Shown here: in pieces, positions 23,372 to 55,859 of the stretch | Position numbering within the stretch: position 1 is the stretch's first letter | Layout of the letters: every line of letters starts with the position of its first letter | Assembly: GCA_963744145.1 (NCBI GenBank) | Contig: CAVUSO010000001.1 | Location: forward strand, 6,496,001-6,560,000 | Reading direction: 5' to 3' | From: an uncultured cyanobacterium | GTDB lineage: Bacteria; Cyanobacteriota; Cyanobacteriia; Cyanobacteriales; CAWUOF01 | Length of the DNA: 64,000 nt | Program-made: the position numbers and the translations under genes | Notes under the pieces: generated by a model | What the model saw: the letters and a program-made list of their open reading frames with translations, nothing else | Databases searched by the model: none | Told to the model about the DNA's origin: nothing

Positions 23372-23578
23372 TTAGATCCTCAATAATTCAACTCGCAAAT
23401 TTTCTATATTGATCGGAATATAGTTAAGTCGCTCAAAGCCAATCACCCGTCCCGCTTGATTTTTGATCAGAATCACTTCTTCTTCTGTTTCCTCTGCCAT
23501 AAATTCCTGGATGGGGTCATCAAACCAAACTGTAAGAGTTTTGCCCACTTCGTCATAGTAGATTTTTAGGCTGTCCAT
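23372..23578 (-). CDS. DUF2283-family small antitoxin-like protein
   Basis: LKIYYDEVGKTLTVWF...VILIKNQAGRVIGFE. Confidence 0.8.
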   Translation of the reverse strand: MDSLKIYYDEVGKTLTVWFDDPIQEFMAEETEEEVILIKNQAGRVIGFERLNYIPINIENLRVELLRI

Positions 23579-23620
23579 ATAAGGCTTCAAACTTTAATCC
23601 GGTTGGTTTAATCAGTGGTT

Positions 23621-23660
23621 ATAGTGATCATATTGCGATCAAGATTACTAACGCACCACT
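23621..23660. repeat. 40-bp intergenic direct repeat, copy 2
   Basis: ATAGTGATCATATTGCGATCAAGATTACTAACGCACCACT. Confidence 0.7.
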
Positions 23661-23871
23661 AAGCAAACAGTAATCTACCTTTGGATTCTGGAATAGGTCG
23701 CCCTAATTCTTGTGCTGTTGCAATCCACTCTTGGATAACGATTTCGGCATTTTGTACTGCTTCCTGATAGGTTTTACCATCTGCGGCACAACCGGGCAAC
23801 TCTGGCACTTCAACAATAAATGATTGATCGACTTCACTCCAGTCAATAATTAGTTTATACTTAATCTTCAT
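23659..23871 (-). CDS. hicB: HicB-family antitoxin; only a C-terminal scrap of the upstream HicA-like gene remains
   Basis: FIVEVPELPGCAADGKTYQEA; overlapping upstream frame EVILAYHLGTQDED*. Confidence 0.85.
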   Translation of the reverse strand: MKIKYKLIIDWSEVDQSFIVEVPELPGCAADGKTYQEAVQNAEIVIQEWIATAQELGRPIPESKGRLLFA

Positions 23872-23920
23872 CTTGAGTTCCAAGGTGATAGGCTAAAATT
23901 ACCTCAATCAAGCACATCAG

Positions 23921-24120
23921 CTACGTTACGATCGTTAGGATAAGCTCTTGAGGATTAAATAGTTGACGCTTAGAAGCATTCAGAAATTCGATGCTAACAG
24001 GTTTTTTAGTTTCGTCATAACTGACAATCACACCCCAGGTTCAGAGATAGCATTGACTGGAAAAATATCACAGAAGACAAAAATTAGAATGTCTGTTTCT
24101 GCATCATATTTAACTTTCAT
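23921..24120 (-). pseudogene. Frameshifted DUF2283-family gene
   Basis: MKVKYDAETDILI... then in another frame IVSYDETKKPVSIEFLNAS. Confidence 0.7.
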
Positions 24121-24429
24121 TTATATTCTCCTGCCAATATTGCTTGACTTGGTTTGTCTATTATAGAGCAATACGGTTCAGTTAAGACCTGATTTGGATA
24201 GATGAACCACCAAGACACTCATGGCACTAAGGTTAGGAAGTTTGGTCTGATCACTTCTTCGTATCTTGGTGTCTTGGTGGTAAAAATCTCATGACTTACT
24301 AAGCTAGAAAATCTATTTTTTCTTTAACTGAACTGTATTGTATTATAGAGTTAAAATCTGCCTGTTTTTACCTATTTCAACAAAGGGTACTCTCAAAAGA
24401 CCTTTACGCTGTTTAATTTGAGCTATCAA
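24110..24429 (-). pseudogene. C-terminal remnant of a DUF4258-like toxin, interrupted by a MITE
   Basis: After MITE removal reads LIAQIKQRKGLLRVPFVEIGKNRQILTL**TNQVKQYWQE and overlaps the DUF2283 start. Confidence 0.6.
24169..24340. mobile_element. Complete 172-bp MITE with ~17-bp TIRs and 10-bp target duplication
   Basis: CAATACGGTTCAGTTAA...TTAACTGAACTGTATTG; TATTATAGAG at 24159-68 and 24341-50; internal ACCACCAAGACAC/GTGTCTTGGTGGT hairpin. Confidence 0.92.
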
Positions 24430-26236
24430 AATTTATTTCTGTATTAATAAATAAAAAAGGAGTAATAATTAAATCCAACGATTGAAGATAAACTGTAATA
24501 AAAATTTGTTCAATATATTGATATAACCCTTCTTTTCCTTTACCAAAAAGACTATAATAGAGAAATTCAGTAATTAAGTTTCTCCATTCTTTATCTTCAT
24601 AGGGATCAGGTAAAGTAGTTTGAGAATCAAAAAGTTCGTCAGCTTGCTGTTTAAAGTAATCAGCTAACAAGATATTTGTTTTACGAAACTGATTTTTATT
24701 ATCCTGAAAATAAGATTGTCGAAATACATCTCTAACTACCTCATCTAAACGATACTGATGTTTAGTAAACTCAACAAAATCTGAGTTTTTTAACCATTCA
24801 AAATATATCTCTGCATTTTTAGTATGCTGCTGTCCCCCTAAGTCATCACTTTCTAATAGATACTGAATTATGGCTAAATTAAACCACCGACAACAAGCTA
24901 CCATCTGCAAAATTTTTCTCTGTCCGTAATTTAGACCTTGAAAAAATAATTCGGTAATTTCCTTATTTCCCCTGGAAAAGTCAATTTCTTGACATTGCTC
25001 TTTTTGCTTCCGTATCCAATTTAGATAATAAGGTAATCCTTGAGTTGTCTTGTATATTTTGGCGCGTGTACCACCATTTTCAATTCCTATTTGCTGAAGA
25101 TATTTGTCTGTATTATTCTTGCTAAACTTGTTCAGATGTACCTCATAAAGAAGATTTCGATCTTGGTTAAGCTTACGCCAACCTTCATTTTTTTGTAGCG
25201 ATCGCCTTCCTATAACCACTAGCCTTATTGGTGCAGAATATAATATTGTATCTTCTACAAAATATTGCCATAACCATTGATTCAAATAAGTTTGAGCTTT
25301 TTCATAGGTATCCAAAACCAAGACAAGGGGACGTTTTGTTCGCTGGATAATTTGGATTAAACTTATAGCAAATGCTTGAGTTAGTTTAGCAACTGGTTGT
25401 AACATCAGTGCCTGTAATTCAGGCTGATCTTTAGTTACAGGATGATTTCTTACTAGCTGTTGACTCCATTCTTGTAAATTTTCAGAATCTTCACTCATTG
25501 TAATTGCTAAATCAGAAAATATGAAATTTGATTTAGTTGAGATTGATGTCAAACTTGTTGAACCTAGCCAAATTAATTGTTCAAACCAGTTTGTAATCTT
25601 CTTTGCTTCTTCACTACTGGCTTTACCACCATTAACTGACTGGTTACTTAATTCAAATAGAGTTTTTTCAAATTGTTGTTCTTGTTGTGTAAATGAATCA
25701 AGACTAGATTTTACATCTAAAAACTTTTTATTCCTCGCTTGTTGATGTAATTTACGCATCAATTTTAGAGGTGTTTCAATATTAGGAGTTTTAGCAAAAC
25801 AAACCTCTATAAAATCAACTTTATCTGTGTAAGTTTCCTTTAATCGACCTAGTAATGTTGTTTTACCTACTCCACCAATTCCGTAAATATTAAATAATAG
25901 AGGTTGTTCATGAGGGTGTTTTAGCGCATTGTCAAAATTTTCTAATAACCTTTTTGCCTCATCTCTTTCAATATAATATTTATCAGGCAATGGTGATCGC
26001 ATTCGAGAGAAATACTCTATCTCAACTGGCTCTTCTGGTTGGAACTCTTTCCTTGCTAATTGTGCTACCTCTAGTCGAGCCTTCAAATTTTCAACTTCTT
26101 TGCGTTTATCATTCAACTCAATGTTTAGGTTTGACGGAATTGTCAGGATAGTGTATCCCGCTGCTTTTCTCTCCAAATCTAAAAGCACAGTTTGGGCAAT
26201 TTCCAATGTTTTTTTCAATCCAAGACAATCGTCCAT
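24413..26236 (-). CDS. STAND-class P-loop NTPase with N-terminal helical adaptor; probably 3'-truncated
   Basis: Walker A GIGGVGKT, Walker B LVLVLDTYE, GxP motif TQGLPYYL; 3' end runs into the DUF4258 remnant. Confidence 0.85.
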   Translation of the reverse strand: MDDCLGLKKTLEIAQTVLLDLERKAAGYTILTIPSNLNIELNDKRKEVENLKARLEVAQLARKEFQPEEPVEIEYFSRMRSPLPDKYYIERDEAKRLLENFDNALKHPHEQPLLFNIYGIGGVGKTTLLGRLKETYTDKVDFIEVCFAKTPNIETPLKLMRKLHQQARNKKFLDVKSSLDSFTQQEQQFEKTLFELSNQSVNGGKASSEEAKKITNWFEQLIWLGSTSLTSISTKSNFIFSDLAITMSEDSENLQEWSQQLVRNHPVTKDQPELQALMLQPVAKLTQAFAISLIQIIQRTKRPLVLVLDTYEKAQTYLNQWLWQYFVEDTILYSAPIRLVVIGRRSLQKNEGWRKLNQDRNLLYEVHLNKFSKNNTDKYLQQIGIENGGTRAKIYKTTQGLPYYLNWIRKQKEQCQEIDFSRGNKEITELFFQGLNYGQRKILQMVACCRWFNLAIIQYLLESDDLGGQQHTKNAEIYFEWLKNSDFVEFTKHQYRLDEVVRDVFRQSYFQDNKNQFRKTNILLADYFKQQADELFDSQTTLPDPYEDKEWRNLITEFLYYSLFGKGKEGLYQYIEQIFITVYLQSLDLIITPFLFINTEINFDSSN

Positions 26237-26241
26237 ATAAA

Positions 26242-27286
26242 CTAACTATTCCTTAATCTTTTCTCTAGTTCAGCTACTTCTTGACGCTTTTCTTCTAGTT
26301 CAATCCGCAAATGAGCAGGCATTTGCAATTTACTAAAGCCAGCGACTTGTTCTTCTAGAATAGCTAATGATCGCCGCGCCATAGCTAATGCAGGAGTTAT
26401 AATTTCATGATTTGTCATCACTTTAGGCAATTCTAAGCTTTTATCTATATTGAACTGTCCCTGACCACCACATAATAGAGCGATCGCAAAATCATCTGTA
26501 TCAAAATCAAAATGGGGAATTTGTTCAACATTATATAAATCTTTAGCTGTTTTAGGTACAGTTTTACCTAAATAATTCATTAAATTAGAAACATTTACCT
26601 CTGTATCCCCTGGTTGATTCCCTCCACCCTGTAACGCTTCTAGAAAATGAAAAGTATAGATACTCATGCTATCATCTTTAATCCATGACTGTTGTTCACC
26701 TTCAGAAGAAGTAAATACTACTCTTCCTTTTCCTTGTTTTAAAGCAGAAATTAAACCCTTAGATGGAGAAAGTCGCTGAAAATTATCGAATTCTTCAAAC
26801 AATTGAGCATCGGCTATATCTGCATCTTTAGATGTTGCCATTCCTGCCGCATGACAGCTATCTATTACTACTAACAAACGTTCCGCTTTAATTTGACGTA
26901 ATGCTTCTGTAAAATCTTTCGCTGATAAGGCTGAATTTGCTAATTTAGATGGCTTAACATCATGTTGCAATAAATAATAGGCATTGTCGGTTTTATCCAC
27001 CCAACCATGTCCAGAATAATAAATAAATACCGTTGCTTGAGAATCTTTTCCAGCTTTTTCTTTCAGCCATTTTAAACTTTCTAAAATCTTAGCTTTTGTT
27101 GTTTCTTGATTATTCAAAACCTGAATATGGTCTTGATCATTTACATAACCGCACAATTCAGGATCAATTAATGCAGCATAAATGGCTTGAGTATCCTTAA
27201 CAGTTACTAGGTAAGGATAGAGGTTTATAAGCAGATTCTCCCACGCCAATGAGTAAGGCATAACCACTTTCAAAACTTTTAGCCAT
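26242..27286 (-). pseudogene. Caspase-like (C14) protease with C-terminal adaptor domain; +1 frameshift near 27208
   Basis: YYSGHG and IDSCHA catalytic dyad; true N-terminus MAKSFESGYALLIGVGES..LSLP lies in another frame. Confidence 0.88.
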
Positions 27287-27540: not shown

Positions 27541-28436
27541 ATGTCCTTCGATAACCTGTGTAAACTCTTAGCAGAAAAATATCCAGACCCTTTTGCCACC
27601 TGGATTTTAGGTGAAAAGCCCCCAATAGTGCAGGTATTGAAAACTGAATTAAGCATCGAACCAATTCGAGCAGATTCAGTCCTATTCCTGCAAACCTCTG
27701 ACCGGATCTTACATCTGGAATTCCAGGTCAAACTAGAATCCGAGCCAGATGGTTACCATTAAGAATGCTAGACTATTGGGTAAGGTTATATCGGCTGTAC
27801 CGCAAACCAATTACCCAAGTAATTATTTTATTACTACCTCCCGCACCAGGAACAGTCATTGAAACCGCCTTTGTCCTAGAAACAACTCGCCATGAGTATC
27901 GGGTAATTAGGTTATGGGAAGAAGACCCTAACATATTTCTGTCTGATCCAGCATTGCTACCCTTAGCATCTTTAGCAGCAACGTCCCAACCAGAACAGTT
28001 GCTCGCACAAGTCGCACAGCAAGTAAATAGAATCGAGTCAGTTACACAGCAACGGGAAGTATCTACATACGTTCAAATCTTAGCAGGATTGAAGTTTAAT
28101 CAACAAATTTTGCATCGATTATTTCGGGAGAATGCTATGCGAGAATCAGTGATTTATCAGGAGATTTTGCAAGAAGGTCGAGATGAAGGTCTCCAAGAAG
28201 GACACCAAAAAGGTCGTCAAGAAGGTCTTCAGGAAGGTCGTCAAGAAGGTCTTCAGGAAGAAGCTCGTGCTTTTGTTCTTCGTCTTCTGACTCGACGGTT
28301 TGGGTCAATAGATGAGACGGTGCGATCGCAGATTTCTACTCTACCCGTTGCATTGCTAGAAGACTTAGGTGAAGCACTCTTGGATTTTTCCTCTGTTGCT
28401 GAGTTACCAGTTTGGTTAGAAACTCATCACCCCTAA
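27541..28436 (+). pseudogene. Rpn-family (PD-(D/E)XK, DUF4351) protein split by a frameshift near 27750
   Basis: TELSIEPIRADS, HLEFQ | LPLRMLDYW, MRESVIYQEI, QEG repeats, LEDLGEALLDF. Confidence 0.88.
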
Positions 28437-42178: not shown

Positions 42179-42239
42179 TAAGCTGAAGGGGATGAGCTGG
42201 GACGATTACCATAAACTAATAAATCCAATAATCTTAACT

Positions 42240-42941
42240 ATGACAATTGCTAAAGAAATAGAATCTTCCCAAAATCCCTGCCCAAATGTTATCTTTCCCC
42301 CAGGTGATTTATATAGCGACGAGCCTCCCTTGGAAAGCGAACTACATCTGCGACAAATAATTCTCCTGTTACAATGCCTAGAATGGTTATGGCAAGACCG
42401 AACTGATTTTTATGCCGCAGGAAACCTGACTATTTACTATAGTCGCTACCAACGCAAAAGCGAGGATAGCCGAGGACCAGATTTTTTTGTGGTATTGGAT
42501 ACGGAACGGAAAATCCGGAAAAGTTGGGTATTATGGGAAGAAGAGGGCAAATATCCCAACTTCATCGTCGAAATTCTGTCGGAATCAACAGCTCGGAAGG
42601 ACAAGAAAGAAAAGAAAAAAATTTATCAAAATGTATTTCGGACACCAGATTATTTTTGGTTTGACCCTTACACCTTAGAATTTGCTGGGTTTCATTTACT
42701 TGATAATAAATATGAACCTCTAGAACCAAATCCAGCAGGACATCTATGGAGTCAGCAATTAGGTTTATATTTAGGAATTCATCAAAGACAATTAAGATTT
42801 TTTACCGACCTGGGAAAATTAGTCCCGACACCAGCAGAAATTGCCGAACAGGAAACTCAACGGGCCGAACAGGAAACTCAACGGGCCGATCGTTTAGCAG
42901 CTAAACTACGACAATTAAATATCGATCCAGATCAGATTTGA
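42240..42941 (+). CDS. Uma2-family endonuclease, copy 1
   Basis: SDEPPLES, GPDFFVV, IVEILSEST, YFWFDP; start inferred from paralogs. Confidence 0.92.
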   Translation: MTIAKEIESSQNPCPNVIFPPGDLYSDEPPLESELHLRQIILLLQCLEWLWQDRTDFYAAGNLTIYYSRYQRKSEDSRGPDFFVVLDTERKIRKSWVLWEEEGKYPNFIVEILSESTARKDKKEKKKIYQNVFRTPDYFWFDPYTLEFAGFHLLDNKYEPLEPNPAGHLWSQQLGLYLGIHQRQLRFFTDLGKLVPTPAEIAEQETQRAEQETQRADRLAAKLRQLNIDPDQI

Positions 42942-43219
42942 GCAAAAGTTCCTTTTCTGCTTACCAATTTAAACCTATTAAAATATGAGAAGGAAAAAAG
43001 TGCTTCGGAAAGAGCTTTGGTGATCAGTTTCACTAGCAGATGTTTTTGTCATACAGGATTAGTTTTTTCAATACCAAGTAAGTATAATAGGACTAGGCCA
43101 TCAGTGATTGTAGCATCATGGGATAGAAAATGTCCGATCGCATCTGATTAATCAGATGTAAGCTGAAGGGAATTAGCTGGGACGATTACCATAAACTAAT
43201 AAATACAATAATCTTAACT

Positions 43220-43963
43220 ATGACGATTGCTAAAGAAATAGAATCTTCCCAAAATACCTGCCCAAATGTTATCTTTCCTTCAGGTGATTTATATAGCGAC
43301 GAGCCTCCCTTGGAAAGCGAACTACATCTGCGACAAATAATTCTCCTGTTACAATGCCTAGAATGGTTATGGCAAGACCGAACTGATTTTTATGCCGCAG
43401 GAAACCTGACCATTTACTATAGTCGCTATCAACGCAAAAGCGAGGATAGTCGAGGACCAGATTTTTTTGTAGTATTGGATACGGAACGGAAAATCCGGAA
43501 AAGTTGGGTATTATGGGAAGAAGAGGGCAAATATCCCAACTTCATTGTTGAAATTCTGTCGGAATCAACAGCACAGAAGGACAAGAAAGAAAAGAAAAAA
43601 ATTTATCAAAATGTATTTCGGACACCAGATTATTTTTGGTTTGATCCTTACACCCTAGAATTGGCTGGGTTTCATTTACTGGATAATAAATATCAACCTC
43701 TAGAACCAAATCCAGCCGGACATCTGTGGAGTCAGCAATTAGGTTTATATTTAGGAATTCATCAAAGACAATTAAGATTTTTTACCGACCTGGGGAAATT
43801 AGTCCCGACACCAGCAGAAATTGCCCAACAGGAAGCTCAACGGGCCGAACAGGCAGCTCAACAGGCCGAACAGGCAGCTCAACGGGCCGAACAGGAAACT
43901 CAACGGGCCGATCGTTTAGCGGCTAAACTACGACAATTAAATATCGATCCAGATCAGATTTGA
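43220..43963 (+). CDS. Uma2-family endonuclease, copy 2
   Basis: Near-identical to copy 1; four C-terminal heptads. Confidence 0.92.
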   Translation: MTIAKEIESSQNTCPNVIFPSGDLYSDEPPLESELHLRQIILLLQCLEWLWQDRTDFYAAGNLTIYYSRYQRKSEDSRGPDFFVVLDTERKIRKSWVLWEEEGKYPNFIVEILSESTAQKDKKEKKKIYQNVFRTPDYFWFDPYTLELAGFHLLDNKYQPLEPNPAGHLWSQQLGLYLGIHQRQLRFFTDLGKLVPTPAEIAQQEAQRAEQAAQQAEQAAQRAEQETQRADRLAAKLRQLNIDPDQI

Positions 43964-44029
43964 GCAAAAGCTCCTTTGAGGAGAGGGGTTGGGCTCGATA
44001 TGTTCTGCTAGCATGAAACAGCCATGCTG

Positions 44030-44087
44030 CTTTTTAAGGGGGATACGAGGGGGATCTAGCTCTGTGCAACTTTACATTAAATTGGTA
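44030..44087. mobile_element. Right-end fragment of the TACCAATT MITE family
   Basis: AAGGGGGAT..AGGGGGAT..TGTGCAACTTTACATTAAATTGGTA-TAA resembles 41130-41183. Confidence 0.6.
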
Positions 44088-44147
44088 TAAGCTGAATGAG
44101 ATTAGCTGGGACGATTACCATAAACTAATAAATACAATATCTTAACT

Positions 44148-44828
44148 ATGACAATTGCTAAAGAAATAGAATCTTCCCAAAATCCCTGCCCAAATGTTAT
44201 CTTTCCCCCAGGTGATTTATATAGCGACGAGCCTCCCTTGGAAAGCGAACTACATCTGCGACAAGTAATTCTACTGTTACAATGCTTAGAATGGTTATGG
44301 CAAGACCGAACTGATTTTTATGCCGCAGGAAACCTGACTATTTACTATAGTCGCTACCAACGCAAAAGCGAGGATAGTCGAGGACCAGATTTTTTTGTGG
44401 TATTGGATACGGAACGGAAAATCCGGAAAAGTTGGGTATTATGGGAAGAAGAGGGTAAATATCCCAACTTCATTGTCGAAATTCTGTCGGAATCAACAGC
44501 ACAGAAGGACAAGAAAGAAAAGAAAAAAATTTATCAAAATGTATTTCGGACACCAGATTATTTTTGGTTTGACCCTTACACCCTAGAATTGGCTGGGTTT
44601 CATTTACTGGATAATAAATATGAACCTCTAGAACCAAATCCAGCCGGACATCTGTGGAGTCAGCAATTAGGTTTATATTTAGGAATTCATCAAAGACAAT
44701 TAAGATTTTTTACCGACCTGGGTAAATTAGTCCCGACACCAGCAGAAACTGCCGAACAGGAAACCCAACGGGCCGATCGTTTAGCGGCTAAACTACGACA
44801 ATTAAATATCGATCCAGATCAGATTTGA
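44148..44828 (+). CDS. Uma2-family endonuclease, copy 3
   Basis: Near-identical to copies 1 and 2; one heptad. Confidence 0.92.
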   Translation: MTIAKEIESSQNPCPNVIFPPGDLYSDEPPLESELHLRQVILLLQCLEWLWQDRTDFYAAGNLTIYYSRYQRKSEDSRGPDFFVVLDTERKIRKSWVLWEEEGKYPNFIVEILSESTAQKDKKEKKKIYQNVFRTPDYFWFDPYTLELAGFHLLDNKYEPLEPNPAGHLWSQQLGLYLGIHQRQLRFFTDLGKLVPTPAETAEQETQRADRLAAKLRQLNIDPDQI

Positions 44829-54572: not shown

Positions 54573-55859
54573 CTAAGCCAACCGTTTTCGCTTCGGGATC
54601 ACATCATCTGCTATTCCCCAATATGCTGATGCTTGCGACATCTTATAACTAAGAATTTCAGGGTGAACTTGATTAAGAATATTCGTAGTTAACAATTGAG
54701 AATTAATTCCTAATGCGTGAATAATTGCATCTCCAATCTCCTTAGATAAAGCGGGTATGACAGCATTGCCAATTTCTCTAAATCCATGCCAAATAGTTCG
54801 ATGAAATTGAAACCAGTCGGGAAAAGTATGTAGTCTAGCAGCTTCTCTAATGGTAATACAGCGAGGTTTTGAGTAGTGAATTGGTCGAGGAGCAGTGAAA
54901 GCACCTTTATCGCTATTAGTTCCAGCACGCAAAGTGTTACAGAGATCCAATTTTGATAACTTAAAAAATCGACTCTTGGGTTCAACTGTTCCTGGTGCAG
55001 TATTAGCAAAACGTTCGATCGACTGTGGTGTATGTACGGAACCAAGATGACCAAAAACTAAATCTCCTACTGTTCTAGTGTGACATTTGGCAAAAATTCC
55101 ACTTGGTTGCAATGCGTATTGAAGTCGATCACCTGTATAGTTAAGTCTATGATGATTTATGCCTCGGTCATAGTCAGTATAAGCTTCGATGTTGGATAGA
55201 TCGGCGATCGCATCATAGACAGTGATTAATGGATTGCTCTGCTCTGAAGATAAATCCTCAGACTGAGCATGAGTTTGTCCATATTTGGGTAAAGGATATT
55301 TAGCCAGATTTACATCGTTTCTACTACCGATTATAATCAAACGCTTTCTTTTCTGGGGTGCACCAAATTCACTCGCATCAAGGATTTTGATTGGTTGGTC
55401 GATTCGATAACCTATGGTAGCAAATTCACTAATTAATTCCGTCAGAAATTGTCGGTGCTGTCCAGTTGTCATTCCTGGTACATTCTCAAAAATAAAATAT
55501 TTTGGTTTCAGTTCAGAGATAATTCTATGGTATTGAAATACTAATGAGTTTCTTGGATCATTAAGCTGACGCTTTCCCATCAGGGAGAATCCTTGACAAG
55601 GAGGACCACCAGCAATTAAGTCAATATCTTTTCCGTAACCCTTTTCAACTAGCGCTTGGAGGATATCTGAACTGGAAACCTGGGAAATATCTTGGCAAAT
55701 TGTTTCACAATAAGGGAAATTGTAATGATGAACTAATGAATGGATAGCATCAAACTCAACTGCTACAGCCACATCAAAACCAGCTGCTTCTAATCCCAGG
55801 GACATTCCTCCACAACCGGCAAATAAATCTATCGCTATGGGTCTTTTTATGGTGATCAT
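54573..55859 (-). CDS. DNA (cytosine-5)-methyltransferase
   Basis: DLFAGCGG, GGPPCQGFS, ENV, Q.RKR, REAARL..FPD, IGNAV. Confidence 0.95.
   Translation of the reverse strand: MITIKRPIAIDLFAGCGGMSLGLEAAGFDVAVAVEFDAIHSLVHHYNFPYCETICQDISQVSSSDILQALVEKGYGKDIDLIAGGPPCQGFSLMGKRQLNDPRNSLVFQYHRIISELKPKYFIFENVPGMTTGQHRQFLTELISEFATIGYRIDQPIKILDASEFGAPQKRKRLIIIGSRNDVNLAKYPLPKYGQTHAQSEDLSSEQSNPLITVYDAIADLSNIEAYTDYDRGINHHRLNYTGDRLQYALQPSGIFAKCHTRTVGDLVFGHLGSVHTPQSIERFANTAPGTVEPKSRFFKLSKLDLCNTLRAGTNSDKGAFTAPRPIHYSKPRCITIREAARLHTFPDWFQFHRTIWHGFREIGNAVIPALSKEIGDAIIHALGINSQLLTTNILNQVHPEILSYKMSQASAYWGIADDVIPKRKRLA

Follow-up and report, generated by a model that had tools for sequence, protein, structure and literature searches.

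The 64,000-nucleotide (nt) stretch of cyanobacterial DNA analyzed here (the window, to which all coordinates refer) carries on its minus strand, head to tail, a caspase-like open reading frame (ORF) and a P-loop NTPase ORF of the STAND type. The caspase ends and the NTPase begins with copies of one small helical domain, called the hairpin below. The locus is probably a decayed copy of a two-gene defense or cell-death module that is common in filamentous cyanobacteria, and the hairpin would be a new adaptor family of the kind known as effector-associated domains (EADs). The adaptor reading appears well supported on comparative grounds: the hairpin is conserved, is strictly paired on adjacent genes, stays in place while effectors are exchanged, has direct-fusion equivalents in relatives, and favors protein termini.

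A conserved hairpin on adjacent genes

The original prediction described a caspase-like gene with an SGHG/DSCH dyad that ends 5 nt before an NTPase gene, and a gapless resemblance between the caspase C-terminus and the NTPase N-terminus. The ORF coordinates and the Pfam match to Peptidase_C14 (Table 1) agree with the first description, and the two segments it quoted, at 26254-26388 and 26072-26206, translate as given. Its hand count of 20 identities in 45 positions is borne out by BLASTP with compositional adjustment, in which 20 of 46 positions are identical and 31 are positive, again with no gaps (E=7e-8). The stretch common to both proteins covers about 50 residues, the hairpin domain about 55, and the profile that describes it 58 positions. 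A hidden Markov model (HMM) of the segment scores both window copies at E-values of about 1e-21 to 1e-27, and over the six-frame ORFs of 80 related loci and the window it matches only at equivalent gene ends.

An alignment of 30 copies, drawn from the window and 14 loci, displays a first helix, a loop of the form A-[GA]-x-[YFH]-x-x-x-x-x-P-x-x-L, and a second helix with K-R-x-E-V; the loop can also be summarized as AG[YF]xxLxxPxxL between two helices. Searched against 1.84 billion representatives of protein clusters formed at 50% identity, the 30-copy profile finds 614 proteins at E<=1e-3, 306 at E<=1e-10, and 4 at E<=1e-30. Among the best word-indexed matches, the named sources are, almost without exception, cyanobacteria (Microcoleus, Symploca, Nostoc, Phormidesmis, Acaryochloris, Leptolyngbya, and others); a Nitrospirae metagenome-assembled genome is also among them. 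The domain stands at the start of 47 of the 120 NTPase homologues listed and at the end of 10 of the 120 caspase homologues listed. Pfam matches no catalytic family to any of the 30 copies, and enzymatic features are absent from this small domain, which is real, conserved, and widespread.

A chance resemblance of two coiled-coil-like segments retains next to no probability. E, K, L, and A abound in both segments, and single hairpin members do draw weak matches from coiled-coil families of Pfam, but only at E>=0.003 (best E=0.0034); set against these are the BLASTP E-value, the conserved loop motif, the 614 cluster matches, and the confinement of HMM matches in 81 sequences to equivalent gene ends. 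The BLASTP comparison, the HMM search of the loci, and the profile search of the clusters refute this explanation, and the similarity goes beyond that of a generic coiled coil.

The pattern of helix, turn, and helix that had been proposed for the segment is also found in an AlphaFold2 model of the hairpin, in which predicted helices at residues 3-26 and 35-57 are joined by an 8-residue loop (mean predicted local distance difference test score, pLDDT, 82.9). In a model of the whole NTPase (AlphaFold2 with alignment A1, pLDDT 72.8), helices at residues 3-26 and 35-64 lead into a low-confidence linker at 63-79, as would be expected of a tethered module. When the hairpin model is compared with PDB structures by Foldseek, no match reaches E<=0.001, and the matches listed include no Death-fold entry; those with a high TM-score are generic hairpins, such as the BRAF BRS domain and designed four-helix-bundle peptides, and serve as an analogy only. 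The hairpin profile finds nothing better than E=0.07 among PDB sequences, and an ESM Atlas look-up with NTPase residues 1-62 returns unnamed clusters with a best score of 0.87, which is below a meaningful level.

The 80 related loci were fetched with the NTPase alignment, and the search of their ORFs with the hairpin HMM gives matches at E<0.01 in 16 of them and in the window. Wherever the NTPase match begins at residue 1 (15/15 loci: L003, 4, 6, 7, 9-14, 17-19, 21, and 22), both the C-terminus of the upstream ORF and the N-terminus of the NTPase carry the hairpin. The sixteenth matching locus, L037, is a 1.2-kb contig with only part of the NTPase copy. The remaining 64 loci, in which the NTPase match falls short of residue 1, have 0 hairpin matches in any frame. 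In relatives of this sort, the NTPase module starts the protein directly or follows another N-terminal domain, and some contigs are cut. The expectation that homologues would occur as paired sensor and effector genes is thus met with 15 paired loci out of 15, and with none among the 64 others.

The nature of the upstream ORF varies among the 15 paired loci. It matches Peptidase_C14 in seven, PNP_UDP_1 in five, and TIR plus PNP_UDP_1 in two, and it is a fragment of 89 amino acids (aa) in one. The effector changes while the hairpin stays. In further NTPase homologues, the hairpin is replaced by a directly fused N-terminal effector: TIR in P0165, P0172, P0191, and P0193, and PNP_UDP_1 in P0171 (precomputed Pfam). 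Thirteen of 14 related loci have an effector stop that overlaps NTPase codons 1-3 (ATGGATGA), an arrangement suggestive of translational coupling; L022 has ATGCAGGA. This stop/start overlap is lost in the window, where a 5-nt spacer stands instead.

The window caspase core is 85-88% identical to P0002-P0004 and only 52-60% identical to adaptor-type caspases. The tail, by contrast, shares 73-86% identity with those of the adaptor-type caspases. The caspases nearest to the window core lack the hairpin, and the tails of P0002-P0004 are unrelated to it. With a core nearest one caspase lineage and a tail nearest another, the window caspase looks like a natural chimera, with a hairpin where its relatives have a different C-terminal tail, which in some of them is a named EAD (EAD10 matches lie above the Pfam cut-off on the tails of P0005 and P0062 and below it on that of P0002). 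In keeping with membership of Peptidase_C14, both dyad residues, His in SGHG and Cys in DSCH, are invariant.

Effector-side hairpins are 75% identical among themselves and sensor-side hairpins 51%, with about 42% identity between the two sets. By these identities, the two copies belong to an effector-side and a sensor-side subfamily and are not locus-specific twins. The Oscillatoria sp. SIO1A7 locus (L022, 5146-10278) has three hairpins, on a PNP effector, on a 123-aa ORF with little besides the hairpin, and on the NTPase about 330 nt later; the arrangement represents a duplication of the junction or, alternatively, an adaptor gene that stands alone. Another pair that looks partly decayed is the second locus of Symploca sp. 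SIO1C2 (L021, 5899-9229), where the 89-aa upstream ORF encodes nothing but the hairpin and profile position 24 is the first that the NTPase copy covers. The NTPase homologues P0173 and P0177 (Symploca sp. SIO2E6) retain the MDD(C/R) start and, with the hairpin deleted, pass almost directly into the P-loop module.

Wider architectures were counted in the best 150 of the 614 cluster representatives, with partner families taken at Pfam E<=1e-4. The hairpin is N-terminal in 62 of these proteins, C-terminal in 61, the whole of a short protein in 8, internal in 12, and present in two or three copies in 7; it is terminal, whole-protein cases included, in 131/150. Effector or signaling partners are Peptidase_C14 (3), CHAT (2), PNP_UDP_1 (6), TIR (5), Trypsin_2 (6), Metallophos (3), SIR2_2 (1), DUF4062 (1), GUN4 (1), and FGE-sulfatase (2). 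NTPase partners comprise about 20 of STAND type (AAA_16, NB-ARC, NACHT, nSTAND1/2/5), one Roc-COR GTPase, and one AAA_15/21 ATPase. Known adaptors also occur on the same chains, namely EAD7 (20), bDLD1 (6), EAD1 (3), and EAD5 (1), and in all 27 proteins that have both, the hairpin is not overlapped by the Pfam EAD or bDLD match.

In many of the EAD7 cases, a protein of 130-190 aa is made up of EAD7 at one end and the hairpin at the other (P0263, P0271, P0286, P0288, P0302, P0324, P0339, P0350, P0352, P0354, P0370, P0376, P0382, and others), and these small proteins are possible bridges between two adaptor systems. Two or three hairpins per protein are found in P0241, P0242, P0243, P0244, P0246, P0317, and P0330. 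The copies in such multi-hairpin proteins precede a calcineurin-like phosphoesterase, an LRR-Roc-COR GTPase, an NB-ARC NTPase, an AAA_15/21 ATPase, or TIR. In P0241 they stand behind a PNP phosphorylase and look like a repeat-expanded tail, and P0317 has multiple hairpins and no other Pfam domain. P0379 has two matched stretches in the profile search, one of which passes in the architecture analysis.

The hairpin might instead serve each protein by itself, as a self-association or regulatory element that, for example, dimerizes the caspase and separately aids oligomerization or auto-inhibition of the NTPase. Helical hairpins of this kind often homo-oligomerize, the best structural look-alikes are generic hairpins and four-helix-bundle peptides, the two subfamilies are conserved separately, and tandem arrays of two or three copies occur within single proteins, all of which fits such a role. 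It is nevertheless unlikely in view of the strict pairing in adjacent genes (15/15 loci versus 0/64 without an adaptor-bearing NTPase), of the replacement of the hairpin by a directly fused TIR or PNP on the NTPase, and of the small proteins composed solely of EAD7 and the hairpin (EAD7 being present in 20/150). These three observations are predicted by a recruiting adaptor, whereas self-association has no need of them.

Very improbable, too, is a junction conserved chiefly at the DNA level, as a cassette that combines a recombination site for effector swaps with translational coupling and in which the protein likeness is a by-product of an old duplication. The hairpin is also N-terminal, internal, or in tandem on many unrelated proteins that have no such junction, and its conservation tracks the helix and loop positions of a protein fold. 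These points stand against the attractions of the cassette, which are the overlap ATGGATGA kept in 13/14 loci, an effector-side tail that is nearly constant across three effector types, and a window caspase composed of the core of one lineage and a hairpin tail. A recombination role would, moreover, be compatible with an adaptor role, which remains the preferred reading of the hairpin.

Damage to the caspase and NTPase genes

Aligned by tblastn with P0002, P0004, P0005, and P0072, the caspase gene is matched in two pieces: homologue residues 1-26 correspond to 27286..27209, and residue 27 onward corresponds to 27207..26245, in another frame. The split of the match at 27209/27207 indicates that the caspase reading frame is broken near 27208. 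The upstream frame reads M-A-K-S-F-E-S-G-Y-A-L-L-I-G-V-G and so on, and then runs into a stop. The open caspase ORF begins with unrelated residues and is without the first strand, GYALLIGVG, which is present in 13/13 aligned homologues (alignment A2). The frameshift site does not lie in a homopolymer run, and the codons of the catalytic dyad are intact despite the frameshift. A programmed frameshift in the caspase was considered and set aside; nothing speaks for it, and the NTPase is damaged too.

The sequence evidence for the STAND assignment of the NTPase is thin and consists of the AAA_16 match given in Table 1; NACHT, NB-ARC, and nSTAND5/6 stay below their Pfam cut-offs. In its Walker A motif, G119 and G121-T127 are invariant columns of alignment A1, and I120 is not listed as conserved. 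Three structures match the NTPase model in Foldseek at E<=0.001, namely MalT, RdrA, and an archaeal STAND-TPR protein. Weaker matches include plant NLR resistosomes, Apaf-1, CED-4, Dark, and Avs3, and the TM-scores, at 0.13-0.22, are low. A search of PDB sequences with the NTPase alone returns only P-loop matches to FtsY, and the same search with alignment A1 is swamped by TPR proteins.

Full-length homologues consist of a hairpin (or an effector), the NTPase, and a C-terminal TPR array, and all 14 complete NTPases of the paired loci are 945-1192 aa long. The 607-aa window product aligns to homologue residues 1-605/616 and then stops; a C-terminal extension of about 340-590 residues is absent from it. 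A search of the whole 64-kb window for a TPR remnant by tblastn with four full-length homologues found none. With a caspase frameshifted after codon 26 and an NTPase without the whole TPR sensor, the window module is probably inactive, and this copy is probably not a working system. The original prediction was right that both genes and their shared segment are real, and it overlooked both the caspase frameshift near 27208 and the NTPase truncation at 607. A putative link between sensor loss and effector inactivation is possible, for example if a sensor-less NTPase is harmful.

Relation to effector-associated domains and known systems

EADs are described by Kaur et al. 2020 (PMC7159879) as small non-catalytic terminal domains that occur on a core component and again on effectors, frequently the products of a neighboring gene. 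Elsewhere the same effectors are fused directly to the core, and the authors took CARD and Death domains as the analogy for the homotypic coupling that they proposed (PMC7159879). The number of EADs is put at 12 by Kaur et al. 2021 (PMC8195603). The hairpin has architectural features by which EADs are recognized in PMC7159879: it is small and non-enzymatic, it sits on the NTPase, it has a copy on an adjacent effector, and it has direct-fusion equivalents. Its pairing follows the EAD principle, and "apoptosome-like", the label first applied to the window locus, is therefore an analogy already in print (PMC7159879, PMC8195603). The module is an instance of a known principle rather than a novel type of system, and novelty may lie in an apparently unnamed family of two-helix hairpins. 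The proposal of a homotypic adaptor that recruits the protease accordingly stands in part: the 15/15 pairing, the effector swaps, and the direct fusions speak for it, while the concept had already been published and the window copy is damaged.

The original prediction did not recognize the segment as a named EAD family, which agrees with the profile searches. The two window segments have no match at E<=10 to any EAD or Death-like model of Pfam or NCBIfam, and neither do the 30 copies (0/30 for Pfam at E<=10 and 0/30 for the relevant NCBIfam models), in a library in which EAD1, EAD5, EAD7, EAD10, and bDLD1 were seen to be present and EAD2, 4, 6, 8, 9, and 11 were not confirmed present. Newer precomputed Pfam lists place no family on adaptor-only proteins. 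The Death-like fold (CARD, DD, DED, Pyrin, bDLD) is a six-helix bundle of about 85-100 residues; with two predicted helices in 58 residues, the hairpin would not be such a fold. The literature search returned no description of the hairpin domain and no EAD12 or later names. The supplements of PMC7159879 and PMC8195603, searched for hairpin motif strings and EAD names, yield no hairpin alignment; this is weak evidence, as the authors' own alignments seem not to be among those files, and the domain may have been described earlier under another label.

The hairpin might also be a divergent member of a named family such as EAD6, EAD8, EAD9, or EAD11, too distant for the Pfam HMMs to recognize, in which case it would lack only the name. 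Among the helical EADs, several show their relationship only at the profile-profile level (PMC7159879; PMC8195603), and proteins that combine the adaptor with nSTAND1 or trypsin with the adaptor (P0377, P0385, P0266, and others) resemble EAD8 architectures (10.1101/2023.09.22.558884). This explanation is rather more doubtful than self-association, given that 0/30 copies match an EAD or Death-like model of Pfam even at E<=10 or a relevant NCBIfam model, that the EAD or bDLD match lies elsewhere in the protein in 27/27 cases, and that adaptor-only proteins carry no Pfam family. EAD8, moreover, has been linked by HHpred to the larger EAD1 and EAD2 (PMC8195603), whereas the hairpin has only two helices.

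As an adaptor, the hairpin resembles the EADs (EAD1-EAD11 and bDLD1-3; PMC7159879, PMC8195603) in its terminal non-catalytic copies on a core NTPase and an adjacent effector, in the variety of effectors, in the direct fusion of the same effectors in relatives, and in its enrichment in filamentous cyanobacteria; it also co-occurs with EAD7, bDLD1, EAD1, and EAD5. It differs from them in that it matches no EAD model, has only two helices, and has adjacent copies that are not clearly closer to each other than to those of other loci. The core it serves is a two-gene STAND-TPR module rather than a MoxR-vWA ternary system or a GTPase system.

The Apaf-1/caspase-9 apoptosome follows a parallel logic: one small helical domain, present on both proteins, lets a STAND NTPase with a repeat sensor recruit a caspase. 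The structural matches of the window NTPase model include Apaf-1, CED-4, and Dark. However, the hairpin has two helices and CARD six, with no sequence relation, the sensor of the homologues is TPR rather than WD40, and the effector of the hairpin system can equally be a phosphorylase or TIR. Avs families and bNACHT proteins (PMC13581612; 10.1101/2022.07.19.500537) share the effector position, the STAND NTPase, and the TPR-like sensor, and the TIR- or PNP-fused homologues of the window NTPase have exactly this single-chain layout. In the hairpin module, by contrast, effector and NTPase are separate polypeptides, and docking presumably occurs through the hairpin; the comparison is one of layout and not of Avs family assignment. 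PADLOC finds only weak caspase, AriA, and PtuA matches. EACC1-associated caspases, from the two-gene EACC1 system (NF047832; PMC7159879), are the best NCBIfam match of the window caspase core (2.1e-23), at 82.9 bits against a cut-off of 140 bits, but the partner gene here is a STAND NTPase, and Pfam names no EACC1-type domain on either neighboring gene.

In an intact module, an upstream effector (a caspase, a PNP-type nucleoside phosphorylase, or TIR plus phosphorylase) would be translationally coupled to a STAND NTPase with a TPR array, the effector ending and the NTPase beginning with paralogous helical hairpins. The TPR array would bind an invader-derived ligand, and the NTPase would then oligomerize in an NTP-dependent manner, as characterized STAND proteins do (PMC13581612). 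Oligomerization may cluster the flexibly tethered N-terminal hairpins, which would dock the hairpins of the effectors, plausibly as four-helix bundles. The docked caspase, TIR, or phosphorylase might then be activated by induced proximity.

Several points weigh against this account of the module and its decay. Contact between hairpins, its trigger, and the activation of the effector are all inferred. The STAND assignment depends on a single Pfam match that barely exceeds its cut-off and on Foldseek matches of low TM-score. Within-locus identity of the two hairpins is 43.4%, compared with 42.2% between loci (14 pairs; permutation p=0.04, driven mainly by L022), so that the closer likeness of adjacent copies expected of EADs is at best weakly apparent. 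Conservation is well above the sensor-side level on the effector side, and this difference could reflect a constraint other than mutual docking. As to decay, the frameshift could be a sequencing error, the genome being represented by a single sequence. A few short homologues of 577-713 aa exist, and a TPR-less form as a natural variant is thus formally possible.

A fuller proposal joins several of these elements and is tentative, its chances falling slightly short of even. The hairpin would be an undescribed family of at least 614 clusters at 50% identity, the smallest EAD-type module and one that is not Death-like, whose effector-side and sensor-side paralogues dock heterotypically. EAD7 bridges and bDLD1 proteins would wire STAND sensors into networks in multicellular cyanobacteria, and the window chimera would be an effector caught while being re-addressed, through an adaptor swap, from one sensor to another.

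Surroundings of the gene pair and biological meaning

The pair is surrounded by ordinary cyanobacterial chromosomal genes, which include biotin carboxylase, the DNA polymerase III delta subunit, cobalamin synthesis, and three Uma2 genes. The G+C content is 0.32 at 24001-26000 and 0.34-0.46 in the other 2-kb windows, a difference that would fit acquisition of the pair as an island among housekeeping genes. Features of the pair and its neighborhood are collected in Table 1.

Table 1. Coordinates of the gene pair, its functional elements, and neighboring features
Feature	Position	Strand	Remarks
Caspase-like gene including upstream frame	26242..27286	-	reading frame broken; stop codon 26242-26244
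Caspase-like ORF	26242..27273	-	343 aa; SGHG and DSCH motifs; Pfam Peptidase_C14 3.6e-17
Frameshift site in caspase gene	27207..27209	-	one base extra relative to homologues; tblastn coordinates and three-frame translation
Catalytic His codon of caspase (SGHG), intact	27007..27009	-	H invariant in alignments A2 and A4; coordinate from ORF start 27273
Catalytic Cys codon of caspase (DSCH), intact	26854..26856	-	C invariant in alignments A2 and A4; coordinate from ORF start 27273
Effector-side hairpin, caspase C-terminus	26245..26412	-	HMM envelope, E=1.7e-21
Spacer, caspase stop to NTPase ATG	26237..26241	-	5 nt; ORF coordinates
P-loop NTPase ORF, STAND-type	24413..26236	-	607 codons; AAA_16 34.6 bits, cut-off 32.6
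Sensor-side hairpin, NTPase N-terminus	26063..26236	-	HMM envelope, E=7.5e-27
Walker A of NTPase (GIGGVGKTT)	25856..25882	-	coordinate from ORF start 26236
Nested inverted repeats	24162-24347		directly downstream of truncated NTPase gene
Outer repeat arms	24162-24185 and 24324-24347		24 nt, 83% complementary
Inner repeat arms	24206-24218 and 24269-24281		13 nt, perfect
DUF2283-like remnant	23923-24120	-	short ORF 24031-24120 plus out-of-frame stretch; by eye only
HicB-like antitoxin ORF	23659-23883	-	
Intact DUF2283 ORF	23372-23590	-	
ORF beside DUF4351 ORF	27541-27762	+	no Pfam match
DUF4351 ORF	27765-28436	+	1.1e-21; adjacent to preceding ORF, different frame
Three tandem Uma2-family genes	42192-44828	+	putative restriction endonuclease-like
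C-5 cytosine DNA methylase gene	54573-55859	-	8.9e-68

The neighborhood of the pair bears several marks of decay, namely the inverted repeats, the DUF2283 remnant, and the split DUF4351 gene. In layout, the repeats are similar to a miniature inverted-repeat element, and they might be a trace of the event in which the TPR region was lost. The stretch beyond them looks, by eye, like a frameshifted DUF2283 gene; the 30-aa piece encoded by its short ORF has no Pfam match, and a HicB-like antitoxin ORF and an intact DUF2283 ORF lie further on. On the other side of the pair, the DUF4351 ORF and the ORF adjacent to it look like a split gene, presumably of an Rpn-like family, which would be the third disrupted gene at this site. 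Farther away in the window, the C-5 cytosine DNA methylase gene has no obvious restriction partner among the Pfam-scanned ORFs of at least 180 aa.

For the source genome, the locus is probably a relic and would not be counted as an active defense system. If the hairpin docks effectors onto STAND sensors, it would be a very small and easily transplantable coupling module that parallels CARD and Death-domain signaling. On the same condition, it would account for the use of caspase, phosphorylase, or TIR effectors by a single sensor family, and several hundred protein clusters without a domain name at present would gain an annotation. The presence of the hairpin beside EAD7, and in larger bDLD1 proteins, suggests multi-adaptor networks.

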